In this document: one piece after another, positions 1 through 16,101 of the stretch
Layout: every line of letters begins with the position of its first letter
Numbering within the stretch: position 1 is the stretch's first letter
Source of the DNA: Escherichia coli
GTDB taxonomy: Bacteria > Pseudomonadota > Gammaproteobacteria > Enterobacterales > Enterobacteriaceae
Direction: 5' to 3' (one strand)
NCBI RefSeq assembly: GCF_003991155.1
Contig: NZ_CP031293.1
DNA length: 64,000 nucleotides
Made by a program: the position numbers and the translations under genes
Notes under the pieces: generated by a model
What the model was told of the DNA's origin: nothing
What the model saw: the letters and a program-made list of their open reading frames with translations, nothing else
Databases searched by the model: none

Positions 1-567
1 AGCACTTTTTCTGATCCAAAGAACTAGTAAAACTGGTAACAGGCCTATAAAAAAAGAGTTTCTCCATCCATATACTTCAGCAAACTGAGGGATTATTTGT
101 GCCGCAATAATATTTCCAACAGAAAAACCACTTACCAAAAAAGCACTAGCTTTAGATTGAAGATTTTTAGGCCAACTTTCTACTGCATAAGTTGAAGCAC
201 ATGCATATTCACCAGACATCCCTAAGCCAACAATAAAACGGCAAACTGCGAGCATATATAAGTTTGTAGCAATACCGCTAAGGCCTGTTCCGACTGAGTA
301 AATGATAATTGCCCACATCATCATTGGCTTACGCCCATATTTATCAGCCATGGCACCAAAAAAACCGCCCCCAATAGGTCTGGCTATGAAGGCCACTGTC
401 CCTATTAAAGTGGCCTGAATATCCGTAATGCCAAGATCTGCTTTTATAATATGAAGAATGTAAAATATCATCATAAAATCAAAGCCATCAAATACATATC
501 CAAGCCATGCAGAAAAAAGAGCTTTCCGTTGTGGTGGATTAACTTGTTTATACCATACTGTTGCCAT
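1..567 (-). CDS. yjhB: MFS transporter, NanT paralogue (YjhB/NanX-like sialic acid family); N-terminal 189 codons only, gene runs off the window start
   Basis: Reverse-strand ORF starting ATG at 565-567 (MATVWYKQVNPPQRKALFSAWLGYVFDGFDFMMIF...); RBS AGGAAAC upstream; closely resembles the NanT/YjhB N-terminus; NanR operator upstream. Confidence 0.75.
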   Translation of the reverse strand, partial: MATVWYKQVNPPQRKALFSAWLGYVFDGFDFMMIFYILHIIKADLGITDIQATLIGTVAFIARPIGGGFFGAMADKYGRKPMMMWAIIIYSVGTGLSGIATNLYMLAVCRFIVGLGMSGEYACASTYAVESWPKNLQSKASAFLVSGFSVGNIIAAQIIPQFAEVYGWRNSFFIGLLPVLLVLWIRKSA

Positions 568-977
568 ATTTGTTTCCTGTGTTATTCTAATACAGCCCTT
601 AAAGTAAATATTAGGGAGCCTCAACAATATCCAGCAATAATTATATTGTCTTCAAATACGCCAGTACTATTAATTGTTATCAATACCTAATCAGTACAAT
701 CTTTTTCTCCATTTCTTCTTAACATATTTCACGCTATGAAAGATAAAACTGATACCCACCTTCAGTTTTGGGTCACCATCAAAAAAAATGTTCGCCAGAT
801 ATTCCACCACTGGCACAGTTCAACCCTGCTTCAAAAATTGACTTATTCATTGTGCTCATTTTCGTAGTCCGTTCAGGTTGAATAAAACTCCCTTAGTCAA
901 ATGAGGAAAGACTGAGAGGTTATTACTTTAGCTTACGTTATAGCTGTTTTCCTTTGCAGTATTTCTTTGCTTTTCTG

Positions 978-1000
978 TATACCTTTATACCTGTTATACC
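978..1000 (-). promoter_or_regulatory. NanR operator: three GGTATA repeats (GGTATAACAGGTATAAAGGTATA on the minus strand)
   Basis: Plus strand reads TATACCTTTATACCTGTTATACC, the exact reverse complement of the nan operator; lies about 410 bp upstream of the transporter start. Confidence 0.7.
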
Positions 1001-1596
1001 AGATCAAAAAACAAGCAATCCACATAACAAAACGCGTTTTGTTACTGATGTCACAAATTGAGCATATTTTTGTATCTGATAGTTTGTTACAAACACCACA
1101 ACCAAGATGCCTATTTCGTTTCAGCATCAACTGTTAAATTATCTGGTTGCCAACGAGAATACTGAGCTTTTTTGTCCCTAAGACTGACCGTCAACGCAAC
1201 AATCTTTGACTGTTTGACATTGTCATGCCCGCAGGCCAGCGGATCTAAAGACATCAGACTGCTTGCATCAGCCAGTTGCGTATCTGGCTATGTCCCTTAA
1301 TTGGTAAGGGTTCGAGGAACTCAACATTAACGCATTTTTCAGCGCATCACCGACAGTGTATATGAACGATTGCACTCTGACGATGGTTGATTTATTTGGT
1401 TGCATAGGGGCTAGCTAGTCTGGTACCGGAGGCTGGATCTGAAGTACTGACCCTAGGAATAACGCCGGGCTGACTCATATTCTGACCCATTGTCAGCCCG
1501 CGTGTTTACTGCTCTAGCTCATTTCCTGTTGTCAGGCATTCAATTCCCAACTGCAGGTTATGGCCCGGTGAGCGAACACCTGACGGCAGGTATCAC

Positions 1597-1770
1597 TCAC
1601 CCGGAGAAGGTAAATCCCTCAAGGGGCAGCAACTCTGCCAGTCGCTCCTCCGGCCACTCCGGCAGACGTGTCAGGACGTCTGTCAGCCAGGCATGTGGCT
1701 CCAGACCGTTGCGTTTCGCGGTTTCCAGCAAGCTCATTATTTGCGCAGCGCGTTCTCCCGCCATACGACA
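1597..1770 (-). pseudogene. IS66-family transposase (TnpC) C-terminal remnant
   Basis: Minus-strand translation ...AGERAAQIMSLLETAKRNGLEPHAWLTDVLTRLPEWPEERLAELLPLEGFTFSG* matches the TnpC C-terminus (compare the intact copy at 13952..15523); no upstream portion present. Confidence 0.6.
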
Positions 1771-1779
1771 GCCGTCAGA

Positions 1780-3642
1780 GCAGTGCGTCAGCGGGCGGCA
1801 GTTTTACCTGGGGTGCTGGCAGAGGTGGTTATGGCAGCGCCAGCCGCGATAATATCCACAGCAACTATGATTCCGTTAATGAGCAGAGCGGTATTTTCGC
1901 AGGCCGGGGTTATTTTGATATCACTGTGGGGAATCACACTCAGCTCGATGGTGCGGTGATTGCTTCGACAGCACCTGCCGACAGGAACTCGCTGGACACC
2001 GGTACTCTGGGCTGGTCGGATATCCATAACCAGGCAGACTATAAAGCCAGCTATACCGGAATCAGTTTATCGGGTGGCTCAGGGATGTCAGCCAGCCAGA
2101 TGGTGGCCTCAAATGCAATAGCCGGTGCGGCGAACGCACTTACCGGTATGTCCGGCAGCAGTGGACATGCTGAAGGTACCACGTCATCCGCCATCAGCGG
2201 CGGAAATCTCATTATCCGTGATAAGGAGAGTCAGAAGCAGGATATTGCCGGGCTCAGCCGGGACCCGGAAAACGCCAACGGCAGCATTGCACCGATATTT
2301 GACAAGGAGAAAGAACAGAAGCGTCTGCAGGAAGCGCAGGTTATCAGCCAGATTAGCGGTCAGATGAGTAATATCGTAATGACGTATGGCGAAACTGAAG
2401 CGATGAAAGCAGCCTGGAAAGAGCATCCTGGCATGAGCGATGCACAGTTGCGGGAGACTCCGGAATACAGAGAGGTCATGAAAGGCTACGGTACGGGCAG
2501 TTCGCCGCAGATGGTGGTACAGGCCATCACGGGCGTGCTGGGCGGACTGAATGCAGGGAACCCGGGGCAGGTATTGGCGGGCGGTCTGAATCCGGCAGTG
2601 GCACAGCTTATAAAACAGTCCACCGGCGATAACCGGGAAGCAAACCTGATGGCTCACGCAGTCTGGGGTGCACTTGCCGCACAACTGGGCGGAAACAATG
2701 CGGCTTCCGGTGCTGCTGGGGCATTCAGTGGTGAACTTGCAGCCTGGTATATCATTGATAACTACTACGGTGGTCGTACCGATAACCTGAGTGAACAGGA
2801 ACGTCAGCAAATCAGCATGCTGGCCACCATTGCCTCTGGTATTGCGGGGGGACTTGCAGGCAACAGTACGGCGTCTGCCGGTACGGGTGCACAGGCAGGA
2901 ACTCGGCTGAAAACAATATGCTGAACGTGATAGCCACTGAAACAGCAGCTAATACGGCAGCAGCAATAGCTGGTGCTACAGGTAATGCCAGTAAGGATAC
3001 CGGGAATGATAATAGCTGGGATACCGGTGGTGTTACGCTGGCTACGGGAACAGTGTGCTGTACGTGATCCGAGTCGCGATGGCACCCGAGGACCGGGGCA
3101 TGTGCTGAATGGCGACAATACAGACGGAAACAAACAGCCGAATCTGGGCAAAGACGTAGCGAGCGCAACGGATAAGGATAAAGCTGAGCTTGGTGGTGCA
3201 GGTGCTGGAATACCGGGGGGGATGGGGACCGGATAATGAAGAAAAAGCCCGTCATCAGGAGGTTCAGCAACAACGATTTGATGAACTGAGTAAAATATAT
3301 GATAAAAGTCACCCGGCCGGAGAGTTAACGGTGGATGGGCAGACTATCAGGCAGAGTTCGGTAAGTAACCGTTATGGTACGACGAAAGTGTTTGAAAGCC
3401 AGACTTTGACGGATAAACAGATCCACAATTACGCACAGCAACTGGCAGGCGATACACCGCTGAAAGAGGTAAAATCGGGAATCTACACGTCTAAACTATC
3501 AGATGGTTCGGTAATAACACTTAGAAACATATCTACATCAGAAGGTCAGACAGGCGCTCGTTGGACTATAGATATTCGTAATAACCAAAAGCTTACTGAA
3601 CTGGGGAATAAATATTCACGTGTGGAGATTAAGTTCAAATGA
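1780..3642 (+). pseudogene. cdiA: Orphan cdiA-CT module 1: 5-prime-truncated CdiA fragment with C-terminal toxin domain, interrupted by at least two frameshifts
   Basis: ORF 1668..2924 encodes a Gly/Ala-rich CdiA pretoxin region; (A)ENN motif at 2906..2917 is in a different frame; toxin ORF 3190..3642 in a third frame; homopolymer G7 at 3214..3220; left end abuts the IS66 remnant. Confidence 0.7.
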
Positions 3643-3995
3643 TTACTGAGTTAAGTGAAAGAGAATACAAGGAGTTGACAGACGCTGCAGAGGGACAGAC
3701 TCTTGATGCTATTTTGTGTTATTCAGTTCCTGATATTCACCCTGCAGAGTTTAGTTTTGCAGATAGAAGAGAAATCTTTTTTTGGGCATTAACCCGTCTT
3801 CTGAAAGAAGGGCGTATCAAACTCGCCAAGCACGGTAAGTTTTTGGAAGGAAGTGTTGACGAGCAGGTTGAGCGTTTTCGACAGGCATTTCCGAAAACAG
3901 AAGAAGAGATGGAAGACGGTATCTGGTTTTTTGATGAGAGTTGTCCGGGGGGGGCTGTTTGGGTGCTTGAAGATGGCTCTCTCGAATGGACCTGA
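3639..3995 (+). CDS. cdiI: CdiI-type immunity protein for module 1 (118 aa, intact)
   Basis: Start overlaps the toxin stop (ATGA at 3639-3642); small acidic AT-rich ORF immediately 3-prime of a CdiA-CT domain. Confidence 0.65.
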
Positions 3996-5112
3996 TAACC
4001 CCTTCACAGCGCAGGATGCGGCGCAGCGAGCGTATAACAACGATATGGCGGCCTCAGTTTTTGGTACCGGAGGGAACGATACAGGCTACAACGGCAGCGG
4101 TACAGGGACTGGCCGGCGGTAATCTGAGTGCAGCCCTGGCAGGTGGTGCAGCACCGTATCTGGCCGAAGTGGTGAAAACCATGACCACAGACCCGGTTAC
4201 CGGTGAGGTGAATAAGGCTGCAAATGTGGCTGCTCATGCCGTGGTGAATGCCGCACTGGCTGTGGCACAGGGAAATAACGCTCTTGCCGGTGCTGTAGGT
4301 GCAGCCACCGGCGAGGTGGTGGGAATGATAGCCACACAGATGTACGGTAAGCCGGTGAGTGAACTGAGCGAGACAGAGAAGCAGACGGTCTCGACACTGG
4401 CAACGGTTGCTGCTGGCCTGGCCGGTGGTCTGGTGGGCGACTCGGGGCTTCAGCGGTAGCCGGCGCACAGTCAGGTAAGACGACTGTTGAGAATAATTTA
4501 CTTGGCGGTAGTGAAGATGCTCAGGCTGCGTGGATACGCCAGCATGGTATCGACATGGCAACATGTGCAGAAAACCCTTCTGGTGCCGCCTGCCAGAAAG
4601 CAATGAATGAGAGGGATGCTGTAGGGCTGGCTCTGGCAACAGGTACAGTGGCACTACTCCCCGGTAGTGCTCAGGCTGTGTGGGGACTGGGAGCAAGTGC
4701 GAATGCTGGTATCAGTTATCTGGCTGATGGTACTGTAGATCCGACAAACGCAGCCATTGCAGGCTGGGTGAATGTGTTCAGCATGGGTAATGGCCTGGCG
4801 GGGACTGTGGGCTGGAATGCGGCAGGTGGTGCGCTGGGTAACTGGATTGACAACAAAGATCCTCTGTCTGGTGCAATTTCAAATGGTATCGGTTCTGCTG
4901 CCGGGTATGGTATCGGTAAAGGTATTACTTGGGGGACAGATAATATTACGAATGCTGTAGGAAAATGGGTGACAAATGGCTGGGATCCTAAGTACGATCC
5001 AACATGGATAAAATATGCTGAAGTAAATCGTAACGATATCATTCGAGAAGGCATGAAACCGAGCAATGTTCTTGGAACTGCTGGAGATATTGGCGGTTCT
5101 ATAGGATCCTAG
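3986..5112 (+). pseudogene. cdiA: Orphan cdiA-CT module 2: CdiA pretoxin fragment, VENN motif, Gly-rich C-terminal toxin domain; frameshifted; no immunity ORF downstream
   Basis: ORF 3986..4459 (..[10 protein letters not shown]..) then frame change; GKTTVENNLLGG at 4474..4506 (VENN 4486..4497) in frame with ORF 4555..5112; nothing coding in 5113..5230. Confidence 0.7.
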
Positions 5113-5230
5113 CTAGGTGGAAAAGTAACTTAGTCTGCAAGGATCAGGAGTTACAGACGGCATTGGCTTTACGCTTACCGTTTTTTTACGCGCCAGAACA
5201 AGACTATGATAGCGTTGCCCTTATAGACGA

Positions 5231-5644
5231 TCACATTATCGTCCACTCCGACTTTGCGCAACTACTGTAGAGTGGTGTACTCCGCGGCTTCTTTGAGGAT
5301 CTCAACTTCCATGTTTTTTTACCCAGCAAGGGCTGTAACTCTTTTATTTTTATAGCGGCAGCCAGTTCTGAGGCAGGAACAACATCCTCTCCGGTAGTAA
5401 CAGCAGCGAGACTTCCTTCCAGGTATTGTTTTTTCCACTTAAACAACAGACTGGGCTGAATACCATGCAAATGCGCCACATGGGACACCCTCATGCCAGG
5501 CTCCGTTGTCTGCTGAATAATGGCAATTTTTTCCTGAGGAGTTTTACGTTTACGAAGCTCCTGCCCCAGCAAAGTTCCAGTTATCTCAAAATTAGAACTA
5601 GTGTTAGACATATATCCAAGCCTATCTCTTATTTTAAGATACAT
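5231..5644 (-). mobile_element. IS transposase OrfA-like HTH protein (IS66/IS3-type accessory protein), solitary, with a frame change at an A7 run
   Basis: ..[78 protein letters not shown] then out of frame; a -1 shift at the A7 run (plus-strand T7 at 5315..5321) restores the conserved ending [16 protein letters not shown]; no cognate transposase ORF adjacent. Confidence 0.6.
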
Positions 5645-5671
5645 CCACTGTCTGGCGTTTCAAGGGGCGCT

Positions 5672-6049
5672 TCAAGTTTTTTCAGACAGTTGAACTAGTA
5701 TACCAATACATTCTTGTTCAGCATCAATGATACATGCTTGGTATGTCGGGAAAAAAACAGAGGTTTCTTTTACAATATATCCACAATCATAACATTGATA
5801 CCATTTCCAGCCTTTTTCCTGAATATAGGAAATATGTAGAAAAAGTGGCAAGACCGATTCGTCTGAGTATCCCTGTTTTTTAGCATTTTCAATGCATAAC
5901 AATTGCGAATTATATGCGTTATCTGATTGAGACAAAAGATATCCATTTTTCTCATGACAATACCATCTCCATTTATTGTCATCAGTCTTATAAAATTTCC
6001 ATATTAATCTCTGATTTCCAGATATCTTATAAATCATAATATACTCCAC
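5672..6049 (-). CDS. Hypothetical protein (125 aa), AT-rich; weak resemblance to DUF1508/YegP-type repeat
   Basis: Intact ORF; sequence KFYKTDDNKWRWYCHEKNGYLLSQSDNAYNSQLLCIENAKKQG loosely resembles the YegP-family motif; no function assignable. Confidence 0.4.
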   Translation of the reverse strand: MEYIMIYKISGNQRLIWKFYKTDDNKWRWYCHEKNGYLLSQSDNAYNSQLLCIENAKKQGYSDESVLPLFLHISYIQEKGWKWYQCYDCGYIVKETSVFFPTYQACIIDAEQECIGILVQLSEKT

Positions 6050-6079
6050 TCCCCAAGGAGACGGCCCTGGGGAAGGTAA

Positions 6080-7444
6080 TCAGTGTTCTTTTATATATGC
6101 GGCTCTGTGACGTTCAAGTTCAATTGCACCACGATGTGATAACCAGCAGAAAATGATGCAACAAATAATACCGCAGCCAAGAAGATAAAATCCGCCATGC
6201 CAGCCAATATGATCGACCATAATACCAAACAGGCTGGTGCCCAGAGACGCACCGAAGATATAGCTCATAAAACCGCGTAAGCCTACTGCAGAACCAACAG
6301 CAAAGCTGGGAACGATCTCCATAGTCTGAACGGAAGCCAGAAATTGTGGAACGTAAATCAGGCAACCAACAATGGCAGCAAAAATTGTCACCATAAACAG
6401 CGATTCACTTTTCCAGTAGCCAATCAGGCAAATGAAAATCAGCGCCATACAAATCATCGCCAATGGCATACGACGCCCTTTAAACAGTTTGTCTGACAAC
6501 CAACCGGCAAGTAGCGTGGAAGGGATTGCGGCCCATTCAAAAAATAAAAACGCGACGCTCATTTGTTCTTTAGAAAAATGTTTCACCGTCAGCAGATAAA
6601 TAGGCAACCAGCTAATCATCCCGAAGCGTACCATGTATACAAATACGTCAACCAGTGAGACATACCAGGCATTTTTATTGCGTAATACATAAGTGCAGAA
6701 AATCTGAAAGGCACTCATGTTTTCTGGTGCTTTTACCGTCTGTCGGGTATTCAGGACGACTTTTTCTTCCGGCATCATCTCTTCCAGAGAGGGTAGACCT
6801 TCCTGACGTGGGGAACCTTTACCGAGAATCAGCACAATTACCGCAAAAACGATGGCCACGCAGGCCGGAACGATATAGCTCGCACTTTGCCAGTGCTCGC
6901 TGCCGAGTAGGGCAAAAGCGGCACCAACAATGGGTGCAACAATACCACCACCGACGTTATGAGAGATATTCCAGAAAGCACCAACCCGACCACGCTCCCG
7001 GCGAGGGAACCAGTTAGCAATAGTGATGAAAGAAGGACCAACGCCCATTCCCTGGAAAAGACCATTCAGAATAACCAATACCGCAAAAATCCAGAATGCG
7101 GTGCTGAATCCCAGGCCAACGTTAACGATGGCACATAACACCAGCCCACACGCCATAAAGACTTTCGGACTGGCTTTATCGGCAAGGCTACTCATCACTC
7201 CTTTGCTGATACCATAGGCGATAAGCATACAGCTACTCAGTACGCCAATTTGTGTGGCGCTGAGATCTAATTGCTCTTTAAGATAAGGCGTCGATAAGGT
7301 GAAATTATTACGCACGATATAGTATGCAAGATACCCCAGAAATACACTAAGTAACGCCTGCATACGATAGCGACGATATGTCACCTGAATTTTCTCCGCC
7401 GGAACACTATCCGCCGCTTGCCCCGTTTTAAATATTGATAACAT
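6080..7444 (-). CDS. pgtP: Phosphoglycerate transporter PgtP (organophosphate:phosphate antiporter, UhpT/GlpT family)
   Basis: 454-aa ORF with 12-TM MFS features and close match to remembered Salmonella PgtP; divergent from pgtCBA. Confidence 0.85.
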   Translation of the reverse strand: MLSIFKTGQAADSVPAEKIQVTYRRYRMQALLSVFLGYLAYYIVRNNFTLSTPYLKEQLDLSATQIGVLSSCMLIAYGISKGVMSSLADKASPKVFMACGLVLCAIVNVGLGFSTAFWIFAVLVILNGLFQGMGVGPSFITIANWFPRRERGRVGAFWNISHNVGGGIVAPIVGAAFALLGSEHWQSASYIVPACVAIVFAVIVLILGKGSPRQEGLPSLEEMMPEEKVVLNTRQTVKAPENMSAFQIFCTYVLRNKNAWYVSLVDVFVYMVRFGMISWLPIYLLTVKHFSKEQMSVAFLFFEWAAIPSTLLAGWLSDKLFKGRRMPLAMICMALIFICLIGYWKSESLFMVTIFAAIVGCLIYVPQFLASVQTMEIVPSFAVGSAVGLRGFMSYIFGASLGTSLFGIMVDHIGWHGGFYLLGCGIICCIIFCWLSHRGAIELERHRAAYIKEH

Positions 7445-7535
7445 GTCTTCACCTGTATTTTATATTGATATGAACACTTGGAGTATTCTGACAATGAGAG
7501 TTATATAATTGAGATGAAACATCAAACTGAAAAAA

Positions 7536-7553
7536 TGTGTCACAATTGACACA
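7536..7553. promoter_or_regulatory. Perfect inverted repeat TGTGTCA-caat-TGACACA in the pgtP/pgtC divergent intergenic region (candidate operator)
   Basis: Read directly from sequence; 7-bp arms, 4-bp spacer. Confidence 0.3.
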
Positions 7554-7842
7554 AATTAATAAAATCAAAGCCTGTTTTTGACCCATTTTATTGATGCATA
7601 GACAGGGTAGATTTATGCTTTATCTGTTTTATTGTTAGCATGTGCGGATATTAACAAATCTCATGCTGATTATCGGGTAATCACTGATTAATATATTAAC
7701 GCTCTCTTTGAGCAGATGTGTTATCAGACGAAGTGTCTGAAACGGGTAATTTTTGTCTCAATGCGATTTTTGCGGTGTATTAATATTTATGACCTGGATC
7801 ACAAACCGATTTTTTAGCTGGTGCGAAATCGGCATCAAAACC

Positions 7843-9060
7843 ATGATTCTTTTACTGTTGTTGATGGATACCGGGGCCGTCAGGGCTCAACGAAATGAAC
7901 TGGTGATGGCCACCACATTCTCACCCGGAGCTACCGCGTGGATAATACAGCGCTGGCAAACAGAGCCTGAGTCGGTAATGATCCGTACGCTTAACCGCAC
8001 CAGTGCCTCACTGGAACAGTTGCTTGATACGGCCAACGTAGAAAACGTCGATCTGATCCTGACTTCATCACCAATGCTGCTCCAGCACCTTCAGGAGCAC
8101 CAGAAACTTGCCCCGTTTGATGATGCACCCGCAGAAAGCCAAAATCTGGTGCCGGAGTCGATCCGTGCAACCTCCGTTGCAGTAGCAATATCAGGTTTTG
8201 GTCTGCTCATTAATCGTCCGGCGCTTTCTGTAAAACACCTTCCTGCCCCTGCTGACTGGGACGATCTTGCTTTGCCGATCTATCAGGACGCTTTATTGAT
8301 GAGTAGTCCGTCGCGTTCAGATACTAACCATTTAATGGTTGAGTCATTACTACAGCAAAAAGGCTGGGTGAAAGGATGGGAAACGTTGCTGACAAGTGCA
8401 GGAAACCTGGTGACAATCTCCTCCCGCAGTTTTGGCGTAGCCGATAAAATAAAAAGCGGACTCGGCGTTGCCGGCCCCGTTATCGATAACTATGCTAATT
8501 TACTGTTAAATGACCCCCATCTCTCTTTTACCTATTTCCCCCGGTCTGCGGTATCTCCCACCTACGTTGCAATTCTCAAGAAAAGCCCACACGCCGATGC
8601 AGCCCGTCGCTTTATTCACTACCTGTTAAGTCCGAAAGGACAGCGTATTCTGGCCGATGCCAATACAGGAAAATATCCGGTGACACCACTTGCCGCAGAC
8701 AACCCGCGGGCAACGCAACAACAGCTCCTGATGAATCAACCCCCGCTGAATTATCACCTTATCCTGAAACGTCAGCGTCTGGTGCAGCGCTTGTTTGATA
8801 CGGCAATTAGCTTTCGGTTAGCACAGCTAAAAGATGCCTGGCGAGCGCTGCACAGTACCGAGGCACGCCTGAAGAAACCATTACCAGAAATACGTGCACT
8901 GTTAACACAAGTGCCCGTTGCAGCGGCCAGCAGTGAAGATCCCTTCTGGCTGGCACAGTTCGATAACAAAAGCTTTGCCGAGCAGCAAATGATGGAATGG
9001 CAACTCTGGTTTCTGAATAACCAGCGCCTGGCGATAAAAAAACTGGAAGAGCTGAAATGA
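7843..9060 (+). CDS. pgtC: PgtC, phosphoglycerate transport regulatory protein (periplasmic-binding-protein-like)
   Basis: ORF 7753..9060; likely start at internal Met 7843 before a signal-peptide-like segment (MILLLLLMDTGAVRA); stop overlaps pgtB start; start uncertain. Confidence 0.7.
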   Translation: MILLLLLMDTGAVRAQRNELVMATTFSPGATAWIIQRWQTEPESVMIRTLNRTSASLEQLLDTANVENVDLILTSSPMLLQHLQEHQKLAPFDDAPAESQNLVPESIRATSVAVAISGFGLLINRPALSVKHLPAPADWDDLALPIYQDALLMSSPSRSDTNHLMVESLLQQKGWVKGWETLLTSAGNLVTISSRSFGVADKIKSGLGVAGPVIDNYANLLLNDPHLSFTYFPRSAVSPTYVAILKKSPHADAARRFIHYLLSPKGQRILADANTGKYPVTPLAADNPRATQQQLLMNQPPLNYHLILKRQRLVQRLFDTAISFRLAQLKDAWRALHSTEARLKKPLPEIRALLTQVPVAAASSEDPFWLAQFDNKSFAEQQMMEWQLWFLNNQRLAIKKLEELK

Positions 9061-11066
9061 AAAACATAACGCTGTGGCAGCGTTTAAGACAGGTCAGTAT
9101 CAGTACCAGCTTACGTTGCGCATTTCTGATGGGGGCACTACTGACCCTGATTGTCAGTAGTGTCAGTCTGTATTCATGGCATGAACAAAGCTCACAAATT
9201 CGTTACTCGCTGGATGAGTATTTTCCCCGTATTCACTCTGCTTTCCTTATTGAAGGGAACCTGAATCTGGTGGTAGACCAGCTAAATGAATTTTTGCAGG
9301 CTCCCAACACCACGGTGCGATTGCAACTTCGTACCCAGATTATTCAGCATCTCGACACCATAGAACGGCTTAGTCGGGGGCTGTCATCCCGGGAACGCCA
9401 ACAACTGACGGTCATTTTGCAGGACAGTCGATCACTGTTATCCGAGTTGGATCGTGCGCTTTACAACATGTTTTTACTACGGGAAAAGGTGAGTGAGCTA
9501 TCAGCGAGGATTGACTGGTTACACGATGATTTTACTACCGAGCTTAATTCTTTAGTGCAGGATTTCACCTGGCAGCAGGGAACGCTGCTGGATCAAATCG
9601 CCTCCCGACAGGGCGATACGGCGCAATACCTGAAGCGATCTCGTGAAGTGCAAAATGAACAGCAGCAGGTTTATACCCTGGCACGCATTGAAAATCAGAT
9701 TGTTGACGATCTGCGTGACAGACTCAATGAACTCAAATCAGGACGTGATGACGACACACAGGTGGAAACTCATCTCCGTTATTTTGAAAATCTGAAAAAA
9801 ACGGCAGATGAAAATATACGTATGCTGGATGACTGGCCTGGCACCATTACCCTGAGGCAGACTATCGATGAATTGCTGGATATGGGAATCGTAAAAAACA
9901 AAATGCCGGATACGATGCGTGAATATGTCGCCGCCCAAAAAGCCTTAGAGGATGCCAGTCGCACCAGGGAAGCGACACTGGGTCTCTTCAGAACGTTACT
10001 GGAAGCGCAGCTTGGCAGTACTCATCAACAAATGCAGATGTTTAATCAACGAATGGAACAAATTGTTCGCGTTAGCGGTGGGCTGATCCTAGTGGCGACA
10101 GCACTGGCGTTACTGCTGGCATGGGTATTCAACCATTATTTTATCCGCTCACGGTTGGTGAAACGCTTTACCCTACTGAATCAGGCCGTTGTGCAAATTG
10201 GTCTGGGAGGCACGGAAACGACTATTCCTGTTTATGGGAATGATGAACTGGGGAGAATTGCAGGATTATTACGCCATACTCTCGGGCAGCTCAATGTGCA
10301 AAAACAGCAACTTGAACAAGAAATTACCGATCGAAAGGTGATAGAAGCCGATCTGCGTGCCGCCCAGGACGAACTGATTCAGACAGCGAAGTTGGCGGTA
10401 GTCGGGCAAACGATGACCACGCTGGCCCACGAGATCAATCAGCCGCTAAATGCGCTGTCGATGTATCTGTTTACAGCCCGCAGGGCCATTGAACAGACCC
10501 AGATAGAACAGGCCTGCATGATGCTTGGTAAAGCCGAAGGGGTGATTAGTCGCATTGACGCCATTATCCGTTCACTACGGCAGTTTACCCGGCGCGCCGA
10601 ACTGGAAATATCACTCCATGCCATTGATTTAGCAAAGATGTTCAGTGCGGCCTGGGAACTTCTGGCCATGCGTCATCGCCCTTTGCAAGCTACGCTTGTT
10701 CTGCCACAAGGTACAGCCACAGTTTCAGGCGATGAGGTCAGAACCCAGCAGGTACTGGTTAACGTACTGGCGAATGCGCTTGATGTTTGTGGGCAAGGCG
10801 CTGTCATTACCGTTAACTGGCAAATGCAGGGTAAAACGCTGAACGTATTCATTGGCGATAATGGCCCGGGCTGGCCTGAGGCATTGTTGCCTTCGTTATT
10901 GAAGCCGTTTACCACCAGTAAAGAAATAGGACTGGGTATTGGTCTTTCAATTTGTGTGTCGTTAATGGAGCAAATGAAAGGGGAATTACGGCTGGCATCA
11001 ACGATGACCAGGAATGCCTGTGTGGTACTGCAATTCAGACTAACGGATGTGGAAGATGCTAAGTAG
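9057..11066 (+). CDS. pgtB: PgtB sensor histidine kinase
   Basis: 669-aa ORF with N-terminal TM/sensor region, H-box (LAHEINQPLNAL) and ATPase G-boxes (GDNGPGW, GLGIGLS); 4-bp overlap with pgtC. Confidence 0.85.
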   Translation: MKNITLWQRLRQVSISTSLRCAFLMGALLTLIVSSVSLYSWHEQSSQIRYSLDEYFPRIHSAFLIEGNLNLVVDQLNEFLQAPNTTVRLQLRTQIIQHLDTIERLSRGLSSRERQQLTVILQDSRSLLSELDRALYNMFLLREKVSELSARIDWLHDDFTTELNSLVQDFTWQQGTLLDQIASRQGDTAQYLKRSREVQNEQQQVYTLARIENQIVDDLRDRLNELKSGRDDDTQVETHLRYFENLKKTADENIRMLDDWPGTITLRQTIDELLDMGIVKNKMPDTMREYVAAQKALEDASRTREATLGLFRTLLEAQLGSTHQQMQMFNQRMEQIVRVSGGLILVATALALLLAWVFNHYFIRSRLVKRFTLLNQAVVQIGLGGTETTIPVYGNDELGRIAGLLRHTLGQLNVQKQQLEQEITDRKVIEADLRAAQDELIQTAKLAVVGQTMTTLAHEINQPLNALSMYLFTARRAIEQTQIEQACMMLGKAEGVISRIDAIIRSLRQFTRRAELEISLHAIDLAKMFSAAWELLAMRHRPLQATLVLPQGTATVSGDEVRTQQVLVNVLANALDVCGQGAVITVNWQMQGKTLNVFIGDNGPGWPEALLPSLLKPFTTSKEIGLGIGLSICVSLMEQMKGELRLASTMTRNACVVLQFRLTDVEDAK

Positions 11067-12303
11067 TGAATATTCGATTCTGCTGATTGATGATGATGCA
11101 GATGTGCTGGACGCCTACACACAGTTACTTGAACAGTCAGGCTATCGGGTTTTTGCCTGTAACAATCCTTTTGAGGCGCAGGCGTGGATACAACCAGACT
11201 GGCCAGGCATTGTGCTAAGTGATGTGTGTATGCCTGGCTGCTCTGGTATCGATTTGATGATGTTATTCCACCAGGATGATCAACAGATCCCCATTCTGCT
11301 TATCACCGGGCACGGCGACGTGCCAATGGCAGTTGATGCGGTAAAAAAAGGCGCGTGGGATTTTTTGCAAAAACCGGTTGATCCCGGCAAATTGCTTTCT
11401 CTGGTTGAAGAGGCGCTACGCCAGCGTCAATCAATCATTGCGCGTCGTCAGTATTGCCAACAGACATTGCAGGTGGAGTTGATAGGGAGAAGTGAATGGA
11501 TAAATCAGTATCGGCGACGTTTACAGCAGTTGTCTGAGACAGATATTGCCGTCTGGCTCTACGGTGCCCCTGGCACAGGACGGATGACCGGTGCACGTTA
11601 TCTGCACCAATTTGGACGTAATGCACAAGGCGAATTTGTCTACCGCGAGCTGACACCAGACAATGCACCACAGCTTAATGATTTCATTGCGCTGGCTCAG
11701 GGGGGAACATTAGTGCTCAGCCATCCTGAACACCTGACGCGTGAACAGCAGTACCATCTGGTTCAGTTACAAAGCCAGGAACACAGACCTTTTCGCCTGA
11801 TTGGTATTGGAGACACCTCGCTGGTCGAGCTGGCCGCCAGCAACCATATCATCGCGGAGCTCTATTACTGCTTTGCAATGACACAAATCGCTTGCCTGCC
11901 ATTAACTCAACGCCCCGACGATATTGAACCACTGTTTCGCCACTACCTTTGTAAGGCATGTCAACGGCTTAACCATCCTGTTCCGGAAGTGGGAAAAGAG
12001 ATGCTCAAAGAGATGATGCGCCGCATGTGGCCAAATAATGTGCGAGAGCTGGCCAATGCAGCAGAACTGTTTACTGTAGGAATATTACCGCTGGCAGAAA
12101 CAGCAAACCCGTTGATGCACGTCGGAACCCCGGCACCGCTTGACAGGCGAGTGGAGGACGCTGAGCGACAGATAATCACAGAGGCGCTTAATATCCATCA
12201 GGGGCGTATCAATGAGGTTGCTGAATATTTACAAATCCCACGGAAAAAACTCTATCTCAGAATGAAAAAATACGGTCTTAGTAAGGAGCATTATAAAATT
12301 TAA
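11047..12303 (+). CDS. pgtA: PgtA, NtrC-family (sigma-54-dependent type) response regulator
   Basis: Receiver domain (LLIDDD...D), AAA+ central domain (GAPGTGR), C-terminal HTH; overlaps pgtB by 20 nt. Confidence 0.85.
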   Translation: MWKMLSSEYSILLIDDDADVLDAYTQLLEQSGYRVFACNNPFEAQAWIQPDWPGIVLSDVCMPGCSGIDLMMLFHQDDQQIPILLITGHGDVPMAVDAVKKGAWDFLQKPVDPGKLLSLVEEALRQRQSIIARRQYCQQTLQVELIGRSEWINQYRRRLQQLSETDIAVWLYGAPGTGRMTGARYLHQFGRNAQGEFVYRELTPDNAPQLNDFIALAQGGTLVLSHPEHLTREQQYHLVQLQSQEHRPFRLIGIGDTSLVELAASNHIIAELYYCFAMTQIACLPLTQRPDDIEPLFRHYLCKACQRLNHPVPEVGKEMLKEMMRRMWPNNVRELANAAELFTVGILPLAETANPLMHVGTPAPLDRRVEDAERQIITEALNIHQGRINEVAEYLQIPRKKLYLRMKKYGLSKEHYKI

Positions 12304-12324
12304 CCATCAGACTTGTGAGCTTGT

Positions 12325-12552
12325 TCATAATGTTATGTCATTTGTGTGATTCATAGACATCGTTTCAATTTTCTCAGCAAGTTCAAAGTAGTGTTCCATC
12401 GGAGTTTTACCGTTGTGAGCGCTATGAGGACGTTCCCAGTTATAGTAATGCTGCCATTCTGCCAGCAGTTCCTTCAGGTCATCAGCAGAAAGATCTACGG
12501 TAGCGTAAAACTCAGCTTTGTTCACGATCACCAACATCGTAAATGGCTCCAC
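12325..12552 (-). pseudogene. Transposase C-terminal fragment (rve/integrase-core type, IS3-like)
   Basis: 75-aa ORF containing ...HYYNWERPHSAHNGKTPMEHY..., the conserved C-terminal motif of DDE integrase-core transposases; no N-terminal part. Confidence 0.55.
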
Positions 12553-12854
12553 CTCGATACCTGCCAGTTCATGAGATTAGTCGAATCCGATGTTCCCCGC
12601 GTTATGTGCCCGAAGCGTTGTTGCCAGCCCCTGCCTGTAGCATGGACTGGTCCGGCAGCCGGTACTCGCTGCTGTTCGAATTGTTCGTGCTCTCATGGCT
12701 AAAAATCAGCACCGTTGATGCCGTCAGGAAACAACTTAAAATTAGCTGGAATGCCGTTGACGGCATTATGACTCGTGTGGTTAAGCGCGGTCTGTCCCGG
12801 ATGAAAAAGCCTTTATTAGCACGTCATATGAATGTAGACGAAGTCGCCTTTAAA
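12543..12854 (+). pseudogene. Transposase N-terminal fragment (family uncertain) disrupted by the IS66-family insertion
   Basis: ORF 12543..12908 runs into the IS66 left inverted repeat; after removing the IS the frame ends ...DEVAFKKV*. Confidence 0.4.
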
Positions 12855-12907
12855 GTAAGCGCCTCATCTGAACCGTCTGGTCTGTTTCCTCCGGCTCCAC
12901 AAAAATA

Positions 12908-13585
12908 ATGTCCATCATTTTTAATGGACACTATCGTATGGAATACCGGACCTGGATCACCGAAGCTTTACGTCTTCACTTTGAAGAACATTTACCACGG
13001 ATTGTGGCCGGACGTCGCCTGGGCGTACCAAAATCAACAGTTTGTGGTATGTTCGTGCGCTTCCGCAAAGCTGGCCTTTCATGGCCTCTGCCCGCAGGTA
13101 TGTCGGAGCGGGAACTTGATGCCCGTCTTTACGGGAGTGCCTCCACAGTACCTGTCGTACTTACTGAAAACACCGTTATGTCCGAAGTCCCGGTGGTAAA
13201 AAAACGTCCCCGGCGGCCTAATTTTCCTTATGAGTTTAAAATCGCCTTAGTGGAGCAGTCACTGCAGCCCGGAGCCTGTGTGGCGCAGATCGCCCGTGAA
13301 AACGGAATCAACGATAACCTGCTCTTCAACTGGCGCCATCAATACCGGAAAGGTGGCCTGCTGCCTTCCGGAAAAAATATGCCTGCACTGCTTCCCGTGA
13401 CGTTAACGCCGGAGCCGGATAATAAAATCCCGGCTCCGGCACAGGAACCAGAGCAGATAAATACACCGTCCGACAGTCTGTGCTGTGAGCTGGTTCTGCC
13501 GGCCGGAACTCTCAGGCTGAAAGGTGAACTGACACCGGCGTTATTACAGACACTTATCCGCGAAATGAAAGGGAGCAGCCACTGA
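12908..13585 (+). CDS. tnpA: IS66-family accessory protein TnpA (ORF as tracked; true start may be internal)
   Basis: Contains ..FPYEFKIALVEQSLQPGACVAQIARENGINDNLLFNWRHQYRKGG.. typical of IS66 OrfA. Confidence 0.7.
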   Translation: MSIIFNGHYRMEYRTWITEALRLHFEEHLPRIVAGRRLGVPKSTVCGMFVRFRKAGLSWPLPAGMSERELDARLYGSASTVPVVLTENTVMSEVPVVKKRPRRPNFPYEFKIALVEQSLQPGACVAQIARENGINDNLLFNWRHQYRKGGLLPSGKNMPALLPVTLTPEPDNKIPAPAQEPEQINTPSDSLCCELVLPAGTLRLKGELTPALLQTLIREMKGSSH

Positions 13586-13932
13586 TGATATCTCTCCCTG
13601 CAGGTTCGCGTATCTGGCTGGTTGCCGGTATCACCGACATGCGAAATGGCTTTAACGGCCTGGCCTCAAAAGTTCAGAACGTCCTGAAGGATGACCCGTT
13701 CTCCGGACACCTGTTCATCTTCCGCGGACGCCGGGGTGACCAGATAAAAGTGTTGTGGGCTGACAGCGACGGACTGTGCCTCTTCACCAAACGCCTGGAG
13801 CGGGGCCGCTTCGTCTGGCCGGTCACCCGTGACGGCAAGGTGCACCTTACTCCGGCCCAGTTATCCATGCTTCTTGAGGGCATCGACTGGAAACATCCAA
13901 AACGAACGGAACGCACTGGCATCCGCATATAA
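13585..13932 (+). CDS. tnpB: IS66-family TnpB
   Basis: MISLPAGSRIWLVAGITDMRNGFNGLA... is the canonical IS66 OrfB start; ATGA overlap with tnpA. Confidence 0.85.
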   Translation: MISLPAGSRIWLVAGITDMRNGFNGLASKVQNVLKDDPFSGHLFIFRGRRGDQIKVLWADSDGLCLFTKRLERGRFVWPVTRDGKVHLTPAQLSMLLEGIDWKHPKRTERTGIRI

Positions 13933-13951
13933 CCCGTTGTAAAGTGAGGAT

Positions 13952-15523
13952 ATGGACACCTCACTTGCTCATGAGAACGCCCGCCTGCGGGCACTGTTGC
14001 AGGCGCAACAGGACACCATCCGCCAGATGGCCGAATACAATTGCCTGCTCTCACAGCGGGTGGCGGCTTATGCTTCTGAAATCAACCGGCTGAAGGCGCT
14101 GGTTGCAAAACTGCAGCGCATGCAGTTCGGTAAAAGCTCAGAAAAACTTCGCGCAAAAACCGAACGACAGATACAGGAAGCACAGGAGCGAATCAGCGCA
14201 CTTCAGGAAGAAATGGCGGAAACACTGGGTGAGCAATATGACCCGGCACTGCCATCTTCCCTGCGCCAGTCTTCAGCCCGTAAACCGTTACCGGCTGCAC
14301 TTCCCCGTGAATCCCGGGTTATCCGGCCGGAAGAGGAATGCTGCCCGGCTTGTGGTGGCGAACTCAGTTCTCTGGGATGTGATGTGTCAGAGCAACTGGA
14401 GCTTATCAGCAGCGCCTTTAAGGTTATCGAAACACAACGTCCGAAACTGGCCTGTTGCCGGTGCGACCATATCGTGCAGGCACCAGTACCTTCAAAACCC
14501 ATTGCACGCAGTTATGCCGGAGCGGGGCTTCTGGCTCATATCGTCACCGGGAAGTATGCAGACCATCTGCCGTTATACCGCCAGTCAGAAATATACCGTC
14601 GTCAGGGCGTGGAACTGAGCCGCGCCACGCTGGGGCGCTGGACCAGTGCCGTTGCTGAACTGCTGGAGCCGCTGTATGACGTGCTGCGCCAGTATGTGCT
14701 GATGCCCGGTAAAGTCCATGCGGATGATATCCCCGTTCCGGTCCAGGAGCCGGGCAGTGGTAAAACAAGAACTGCCCGGCTGTGGGTTTACGTCCGTGAT
14801 GACCGTAACGCCGGTTCACAGATGCCCCCGGCGGTCTGGTTCGCGTACAGCCCGGACCGGAAAGGTATCCATCCACAGAATCACCTGGCCGGTTACAGCG
14901 GTGTGCTTCAGGCCGATGCTTACGGTGGTTACCGGGCGTTATACGAATCCGGCAGAATAACGGAAGCCGCGTGTATGGCCCATGCCCGGAGAAAAATCCA
15001 CGATGTGCATGCAAGAGCGCCTACCGATATCACCACGGAAGCCCTGCAGCGTATCGGTGAACTGTATGCAATCGAGGCAGAGGTCCGGGGATGTTCAGCA
15101 GAACAGCGTCTGGCGGCAAGAAAAGCCAGAGCTGCGCCACTGATGCAGTCGTTGTACGACTGGATACAGACTCAGATGAAAACACTGTCGCGTCACTCGG
15201 ATACGGCAAAAGCGTTCGCATACCTGCTGAAACAGTGGGGTGGCCTGAACGTGTACTGCAGTAATGGCTGGGTGGAAATCGACAACAACATCGCAGAGAA
15301 CGCCTTACGGGGAGTAGCCGTAGGCCGGAAAAACTGGCTGTTCGCAGGTTCCGACAGCGGTGGTGAACATGCGGCGGTGTTGTACTCGCTGATCGGCACA
15401 TGTCGTCTGAACAATGTGGAGCTAGAAAAGTGGCTGCGCTACGTCATTGAGCATATCCAGGACTGGCCGGCAAACCGGGTACGCGATCTGTTGCCCTGGA
15501 AAGTTGATCTGAGCTCTCAGTAA
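13952..15523 (+). CDS. tnpC: IS66-family transposase TnpC
   Basis: 523-aa ORF with N-terminal leucine zipper, CxxC zinc ribbon (CPACGG) and DDE domain. Confidence 0.85.
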
Positions 15524-15873
15524 ATATCAATACGGTTCTGACGAGCCGCTTACCCTTTAAAAAGGTATAGGTATATAACAGTAATATCTGATCGTAACGG
15601 ACGGACGCTGGAATTAACCGATGACCGCAGCACAGAGAGTAGGGGATGCGGACGGTCAAAGATCGCGGCGTTGGATTTTATAAATCTGTCTCCAGTAGTA
15701 GATGAACTGAATACAAAGTTGCCAGAGAGTGGTCTGTCAGGCAGGGAATCAGAAACTGGATATTATTGACTGGTACATTGTGTCGGGCTGTGTACGTTCT
15801 CCCCGGACAGACAGTCTCAGTTCGTAGAATCTATAAATTACTGCTACTGATGCTGCCGGGGAAAGGCGTAACG

Positions 15874-15910
15874 AAAAAACAGCCTCCGTTACCGGACAGC
15901 AAGGAGGCTG
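15874..15910 (-). terminator. Intrinsic terminator-like hairpin (CAGCCTCC / GGAGGCTG stem followed by T6 on the minus strand), about 190 bp downstream of papI
   Basis: Inverted repeat and U-tract read from sequence. Confidence 0.4.
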
Positions 15911-16101
15911 AATGGAGTTTACAGGATTTGCTTTTTTATAATGTCTGGCCATGCAGTAAAACCGGACAGGTTTTATTATCATGTGAGGTATTCTGACATA
16001 AAATGCTGGATTTTTATTTTGTGACGAATGCTGCAAAATTGAATCTGCACTCTGATGTAACTTTTATCTGTTTCAGTGAAGCATGCCCACAAATTGAGTT
16101 A

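Follow-up and report, generated by a model that had tools for sequence, protein, structure and literature searches.

At glnAp2, NtrC binds enhancer sites of the consensus TGCACCA-N3-TGGTGCA. From more than 100 bp upstream, these sites act on a sigma-54 -24/-12 promoter via DNA looping and ATP hydrolysis. NtrX of Brucella (PDB 5m7n), NtrC of Rhodobacter capsulatus and TyrR of E. coli are built, like PgtA, of a receiver, an AAA+-like domain and a Fis-type HTH, and have lost GAFTGA. They bind dyad-symmetric sites and activate sigma-70 promoters without sigma-54. The UhpA/uhpT system is similar to pgt in its logic: a membrane sensor pair detects an external organophosphate, the response regulator acts just upstream of a weak sigma-70 -35 element, and the regulated gene, uhpT, encodes a sister organophosphate:phosphate antiporter of the MFS type. 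However, UhpA is a NarL/LuxR-type protein that is unrelated to PgtA and uses a different DNA motif. The parallel between UhpA/uhpT and pgt has been noted before (PMC10715179).

For the pgt system itself, it is established by genetics that sensing through PgtC and PgtB leads to phosphorylation of PgtA and that PgtA is the activator of pgtP (PMC11077982). A reporter carrying positions -435 to -25 of Salmonella pgtP was sufficient for the response to 3PG, and this response required functional PgtA (PMC11077982). The orthologous position of the palindrome described here is covered by that Salmonella fragment.

The palindrome upstream of pgtP in E. coli is probably a promoter-proximal operator bound by PgtA, the response regulator encoded at the locus, and placed at an activator-dependent pgtP promoter of the sigma-70 type. 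Like the NtrC sites at glnAp2, which are of 17-18 bp, it consists of two 7-mers starting with TG and ending with CA; binding by a Fis-type HTH dimer and the pairing of sites on one helix face, as at glnAp2, are predicted for PgtA. Unlike the NtrC sites, the dyad abuts a putative sigma-70 -35 hexamer and is not accompanied by a -24/-12 element. Compared with NtrX, R. capsulatus NtrC and TyrR, the PgtA family alone has the TGnGTCA half-site and a rigid distance of 10-11 nt to the -35 hexamer; PgtA also lacks the Walker B acidic pair, and its signal comes from a three-part PgtC/PgtB sensor.

The whole stretch of DNA analysed, here called the window, was 64 kb in length. RefSeq annotates all four pgt genes in it, and the naming of pgtP and pgtC in the original prediction proved correct, as pgtP, pgtB and pgtA reach NCBIfam equivalog cut-offs and pgtC carries its RefSeq annotation. 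The regulated gene pgtP, encoding the phosphoglycerate transporter, is located on the minus strand (6080..7444; equivalog NF047787, 885.8 bits against a cut-off of 750). On the plus strand are pgtC, for a periplasmic-binding-protein-like signal modulator (7789..9060), pgtB, for the sensor histidine kinase (9057..11066; equivalog NF047794, 1068.5 bits against a cut-off of 1000), and pgtA, for the response regulator proposed to bind the palindrome (11056..12303; above its NCBIfam equivalog cut-off). RefSeq starts pgtC at 7843. An in-frame extension of pgtC reading M-x-x-I-T-N-x-F (window 7789-7845, plus strand) is kept in Klebsiella, Citrobacter, Salmonella, Serratia and Mixta, and a start at 7789 gives pgtC a more typical signal peptide. 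The true start of pgtC is probably the ATG at 7789 and not the one at 7843. A 9/10 CRP-like match at 7788-7803 was discarded because it overlaps this probable start codon and the conserved first codons that follow it.

A second conserved block, TGTGCGGATATTAACA, was observed in the same intergenic region at window 7641-7656 (plus strand), 100-104 bp beyond the palindrome. It was present with 0-3 mismatches in 24 loci of the Escherichia, Citrobacter, Klebsiella, Salmonella and Mixta clade and absent from Providencia, Morganella, Edwardsiella and Raoultella. The block, which agrees with the CRP core at 8/10 positions, may serve as a class II CRP site or may belong to the pgtC promoter as its -35 region.

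The pgt locus is accessory in E. coli, being present in 446 of 5426 complete genomes. On both sides of it (window ~1-6050 and 12300-16000) we observed an island with transposase (IS) remnants, VENN-motif pre-toxin fragments, a DUF596 gene and the pap (P fimbria) operon. The island setting of the cassette fits horizontal acquisition.

The palindrome occupies window positions 7536-7553 (TGTGTCACAATTGACACA) and consists of two perfectly complementary 7-bp arms, TGTGTCA and TGACACA, separated by the non-palindromic spacer CAAT. The sequence predicted earlier was exact at these positions, and it matched only once across the 64-kb window. The palindrome had been described as lying roughly midway between pgtP and pgtC, which was not the case: it is close to pgtP, with its near edge 91 bp from the pgtP ATG (7444) and its far edge 289 bp from the RefSeq pgtC ATG (7843), or 235 bp from the likelier ATG at 7789. 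Measured from its centre, the distances are ~100 bp to the pgtP ATG and 245-300 bp to the pgtC ATG.

A perfect 7-bp inverted repeat, taken alone, is within chance expectation. In the window there is one such repeat, with a spacer of 0-8 nt, for every 719 bp; when the intergenic region was shuffled, 27% of the copies contained one with perfect 7-bp arms, and the exact pattern, allowing up to 2 mismatches, was seen in 21 of 100 window shuffles. The significance of the dyad comes from its being conserved and not from its being palindromic. These frequencies favour the view that the palindrome is a functionless chance feature of AT-rich intergenic DNA, but in 47 orthologous and 4 paralogous loci the core does not change and keeps its place in the promoter, whereas the bases around it vary freely, and we give this view practically no credence.

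Conservation was assessed in a scan with one genome per species, which returned 78 loci, about 50 of them encoding PgtP orthologues with at least 79% identity. A comparison within E. coli (97% identity) was too shallow to speak on conservation. In nearly all orthologous loci the dyad was located 107-132 bp upstream of the pgtP ATG. The initial comparison of orthologues showed departures from the E. coli dyad confined to positions 3 and 16 and the spacer. After the loci had been anchored, the pattern TGnGTCA-N4-TGACnCA was common to 47 distinct orthologous loci, with 12 invariant core positions; the spacer, positions 3 and 16 and the flanks varied freely. In the 611 kb scanned this pattern matched 47 times, each time upstream of a pgtP orthologue, against 0.03 matches expected. 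The genera with the core belong to the Enterobacterales and include Escherichia, Citrobacter, Klebsiella, Salmonella, Serratia, Raoultella, Edwardsiella, Providencia and Morganella, among others. Absence of the palindrome from orthologous pgt promoters had been named as evidence that would speak against a function, and the palindrome was found in essentially all of them.

Positions 3 and 16 were complementary in 18 of the 47 loci and non-complementary in the other 29. Perfect 7-bp arms are thus peculiar to a few lineages, and the conserved unit, as judged from the alignment, is TG-n-GTCA / TGAC-n-CA. Since these two positions are complementary in 18 of 47 loci only, selection acts on sequence and not on base pairing, which points to recognition by a protein. 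The same comparison bears on the proposal that the palindrome works as a hairpin, either as an intrinsic terminator reading towards pgtP or as a cruciform. On the minus strand the E. coli sequence is indeed terminator-like, with a 7-bp stem, a 4-nt loop and then TTTTTTCAGT, and its hairpin energy is -7.3 kcal/mol. However, the arms are conserved in sequence and not merely in complementarity, and the uncompensated variation at positions 3 and 16 leaves a 4-bp stem (~-3 kcal/mol) in many species. The mean hairpin energy of the dyad was -4.9 kcal/mol. The T-run is not conserved, being confined to some clades, with A-rich tails in Providencia, Raoultella and Morganella, and there is no upstream gene on the minus strand to terminate. 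The element is also located upstream of the putative -35 hexamer and so would not be part of the pgtP transcript. The terminator-like score on the minus strand is a peculiarity of E. coli, and a hairpin function is highly improbable.

A few loci departed from the general picture. In Ventosimonas (L051) and in one Serratia locus (L042), pgtP is at a contig end and the upstream sequence is missing. The sole locus with pgtC and pgtB and without the dyad came from an uncultured Cedecea (L023). Here the 5' end of pgtP and the whole promoter/operator region (L023 2797-3010) have been swapped for unrelated sequence, with a frame problem, and the locus may be either decayed or an assembly artefact. 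In Salmonella enterica subsp. arizonae (L055 1341-2545), pgtC residues 12-110 run straight into pgtA residues 110-415; pgtB is deleted and the operator is still intact. This system is probably dead.

In every motif-bearing orthologous locus with sufficient upstream sequence (46 of 47, L018 being a short contig), divergent pgtC-pgtB or their remnants were found. PgtC, PgtB and PgtA were the sole regulators consistently linked to the motif. The same dyad was present in four paralogous cassettes (L082, L086, L087 and L088), whose PgtA-like regulators are 51-56% identical to PgtA. In Escherichia, a second pgt-like cassette is located between metJ and rpmE (L082 2631-9281, also L083); it encodes a binding protein and a kinase that resemble PgtC and PgtB, together with an MFS transporter and a regulator that share 75% identity with PgtP and 53% with PgtA, respectively. 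Its transporter gene is preceded at ~138 bp by a perfect TGAGTCAAAATTGACTCA, the single match in 17 kb at L082, and cross-talk of this cassette with pgt is possible. In Pectobacterium (L088) a perfect dyad match was accompanied by a half-site ~33 bp upstream, in Yersinia (L087) two dyads with one mismatch each against the consensus were 33 bp apart, and in Budvicia (L086) the dyad had one mismatch. A PgtCBA-like paralogue of Citrobacter portucalensis (L084 4126-4793), whose regulator falls in the same identity range, lies divergent from an EAL-domain gene and is without a transporter gene next to it. Three copies of the motif were seen there, two of them 32 bp apart (4247 and 4279) and the last at 4364. 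The converse was found in Megasphaera paucivorans (L047 16-4401), where a PgtP homologue of 64% identity lacks such a dyad. In place of PgtCBA, the genes before it encode a phosphonate-binding protein, a HisKA_3 kinase and a response regulator of the LuxR type. In Megasphaera the same transporter is wired to a different sensing system. Across these arrangements the motif goes with the regulator and not with the transporter.

This distribution is relevant to the alternative that the dyad binds a global or accessory regulator encoded by the host, such as CRP, PhoB, the Salmonella protein VrpA or another factor, instead of PgtA. The original prediction had named a CRP-like site as one candidate. 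The dyad and the CRP operator (TGTGA-N6-TCACA) share dyad symmetry, TGTG/CACA ends and a place at the promoter of a carbon-source transporter, the E. coli sequence matches 8/10 positions of the CRP core, and a crp mutation lowers pgtP mRNA in Salmonella. The resemblance did not hold on closer comparison. The 8/10 matches are in registers 1 bp off the dyad centre, and with TGAGTCA, the orthologue consensus, 7/10 remain. What is conserved is a 7-N4-7 symmetry and not 5-N6-5, and the right half has G in place of the C of TCACA. This C, position 16 of the CRP consensus, is critical. The CRP-like bases are not the conserved ones, and the candidate was dropped. A CRP site has been mapped at uhpT, but the pgtP dyad is no such site.

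VrpA (STM2748) shifts pgt promoter DNA in Salmonella, but it is described as absent from E. coli, while the site is kept in E. coli, Providencia, Edwardsiella and others; VrpA therefore cannot explain a site that occurs throughout the Enterobacterales. For PhoB, TGTCA resembles part of the Pho box, but a Pho box is a pair of direct 7-bp repeats with a period of 11 bp, unlike the inverted pair seen here, and deleting phoB leaves pgtP transcription in Salmonella unaffected (PMC10715179). Against host regulators in general, the paralogous loci with the motif share only a PgtA-like linked regulator, and the Megasphaera locus is without the motif. A host-encoded binder is unlikely. Given a mobile cassette, with the restricted distribution and the island with IS remnants described above, a self-encoded binder is the most economical explanation.

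The promoter of pgtP was then delineated by alignment of 51 loci (the 47 orthologous loci, L006 and three of the paralogues). In all 51, TTGnnn followed the dyad after 10-11 nt and was separated by 17 bp from a hexamer whose second base is A and whose sixth is T (nAnnnT). The spacing of dyad, -35 and -10 was fixed even though the distance from the dyad to the ATG ranged from 88 to 208 nt. In E. coli the putative -35 hexamer is TTGATG (7520..7525, minus strand), which starts 10 nt downstream of the palindrome, and the putative -10 hexamer, after a 17-bp spacer, is AACTCT (7497..7502, minus strand). Other forms of the -10 hexamer in the family were CACTCT, CATGAT, CATTAT and CACAAT. From the position of the -10 hexamer, transcription of pgtP would start at 7488..7492 (minus strand), 5-9 nt downstream of it, and the predicted proximal operator (7536..7553, no strand assigned; an 18-bp dyad of the consensus TGnGTCA-N4-TGACnCA) would be centred at about -54.5. 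The E. coli -10 hexamer has 2/6 matches to TATAAT and is very poor. A generic sigma-70 scan of the region gave three matches (2.2 expected), all on the wrong strand for pgtP, and it missed the proposed promoter because of these 2/6 matches. pgtP is not listed in the Klebsiella genome-wide TSS supplements.

A distal half-site, TGGGTCA followed by an A-tract, was located at 7579..7585 on the minus strand, 31-32 bp (~3 helical turns) upstream of the proximal dyad. The strict TGnGTCA was present at offset -31/-32 in 30 of the 47 orthologous loci, and the GTCAAAA core was kept in the remainder. In Providencia the distal position is a full 7-N3-7 dyad. Paired sites three helical turns apart on one helix face, beside a weak promoter, are the usual layout for a cooperative activator.

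PgtA consists of a receiver domain, a degenerate AAA+ domain and a Fis-type HTH_8. As a member of the NtrC family it is often annotated as sigma-54-dependent, and the dyad could on this basis be a PgtA site that acts as a classical sigma-54 enhancer, with ATP-driven open complex formation at a -24/-12 promoter. The protein argues against such a role. No GAFTGA-like motif was found in PgtA or in 12 relatives (13 family members compared). The Walker A motif of PgtA is GAPGTGR (residues 170-176), its Lys being replaced by Arg across the family, so that Walker A ends in R in the 12 relatives as well. The Walker B position of PgtA reads LVLSHPE without a DE acidic pair, and the relatives have SH or similar in place of DE. 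The Pfam Sigma54_activat profile (PF00158) aligns with PgtA over profile positions 1-55 of 168 only. The best full-length solved relative of PgtA is NtrX (the 5m7n structure). PDB entry 3n70, named 'Transport activator', is identical to the PgtA central domain (residues 140-284; window 11473-11907), so the structure of the degenerate AAA+ module has been solved. Within the PgtA family, identity is 71-98% in the HTH_8 region compared with 52-85% overall, and PRKKLYLRM in the HTH is invariant in the 13 proteins. This invariant recognition helix parallels the invariance of the half-sites.

The DNA also argues against a sigma-54 enhancer. No sigma-54 -24/-12 element (TGGCAC-N5-TTGCW, up to 3 mismatches) was found between window positions 7032 and 8165, and none was found between the palindrome and the ATG in the 51 loci. 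The dyad is instead 10-11 nt from the conserved -35/-10 pair, and pgt was never mentioned in a study of the Salmonella sigma-54 regulon. A recent paper gave a sigma-54-based explanation for the inactivating G173D change in S. Typhi PgtA, but G173 falls inside the degenerate Walker A motif GAPGTGR. A role as a classical sigma-54 enhancer is very unlikely. Taken with the lack of sigma-54 hallmarks, the conservation of a -35/-10 pair speaks for sigma-70 polymerase being activated from about -55, and the PgtA family looks sigma-54-independent, against the common annotation.

A PgtA-binding upstream activator sequence had been the other candidate of the original prediction. The PgtA part of it gained strong support from the comparison, as the motif follows PgtA-family regulators, is missing where the regulator is different, and is matched by an invariant recognition helix. 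The part concerning an upstream activator sequence of the sigma-54 type was not sustained, as the site abuts a sigma-70 -35 hexamer and PgtA has no GAFTGA. In the searchable literature, which does not cover the original 1988 Salmonella promoter paper, we found no PgtA EMSA, footprint or ChIP on the dyad and no mapped PgtA site; the 1988 paper may have noted the dyad already. The start site, as well as the physical binding of PgtA to the dyad, its cooperative use of the distal half-site and its contact with sigma-70 polymerase, is what we infer from sequence comparison.

With the palindrome as an operator for PgtA, the following course of activation can be proposed. External 2- or 3-phosphoglycerate or PEP is sensed via PgtC and PgtB, and PgtB phosphorylates the PgtA receiver at Asp56, which is the step established by genetics. 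A PgtA dimer would then set its two Fis-type HTH motifs on the half-sites TGnGTCA/TGACnCA, the centres of which are 11 bp apart. A further PgtA subunit or dimer may occupy the half-site 31-32 bp upstream on the same helix face, and the degenerate AAA+ domain would probably mediate oligomerisation of PgtA. The complex, centred at about -54.5 and one helical turn upstream of the -35 hexamer, is predicted to recruit or stabilise sigma-70 RNA polymerase at the very weak -10 hexamer; this step is deduced from the rigid module of palindrome, -35 and -10. PgtA would not remodel a sigma-54 holoenzyme by ATP hydrolysis.

Our judgement inclines slightly towards a wider view of the family, in which PgtA and its relatives would form a distinct NtrC-type clade that does not use sigma-54. 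Their AAA+ domain would have decayed to an oligomerisation scaffold, their operator throughout the family would be TGnGTCA-N4-TGACnCA with a helper half-site three turns upstream, and they would activate sigma-70 polymerase from about -55. If this is true, the 'sigma-54-dependent' label on many PgtA-type proteins is wrong, and so is the account of the S. Typhi PgtA G173D defect that rests on sigma-54; the cassette between metJ and rpmE would be a cross-talking or an insulated twin on the same operator.

A response-regulator site beside its own target promoter is an ordinary kind of element, and this one is now well defined. It offers an 18-bp target, set in a rigid promoter module, for work by mutagenesis or EMSA and for the engineering of biosensors, the pgtP promoter also serving as a 3PG biosensor. 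The comparison gives evidence that PgtA-type proteins have been mis-annotated as sigma-54 dependent, and the position of G173D in a degenerate Walker A motif offers a different explanation for the inactivating change in S. Typhi. The operator shared with the second Escherichia cassette raises the question of cross-talk. Through pgtP, the gene predicted to be controlled from this site, host 3-phosphoglycerate and PEP become a food source for Salmonella and some pathogenic E. coli.
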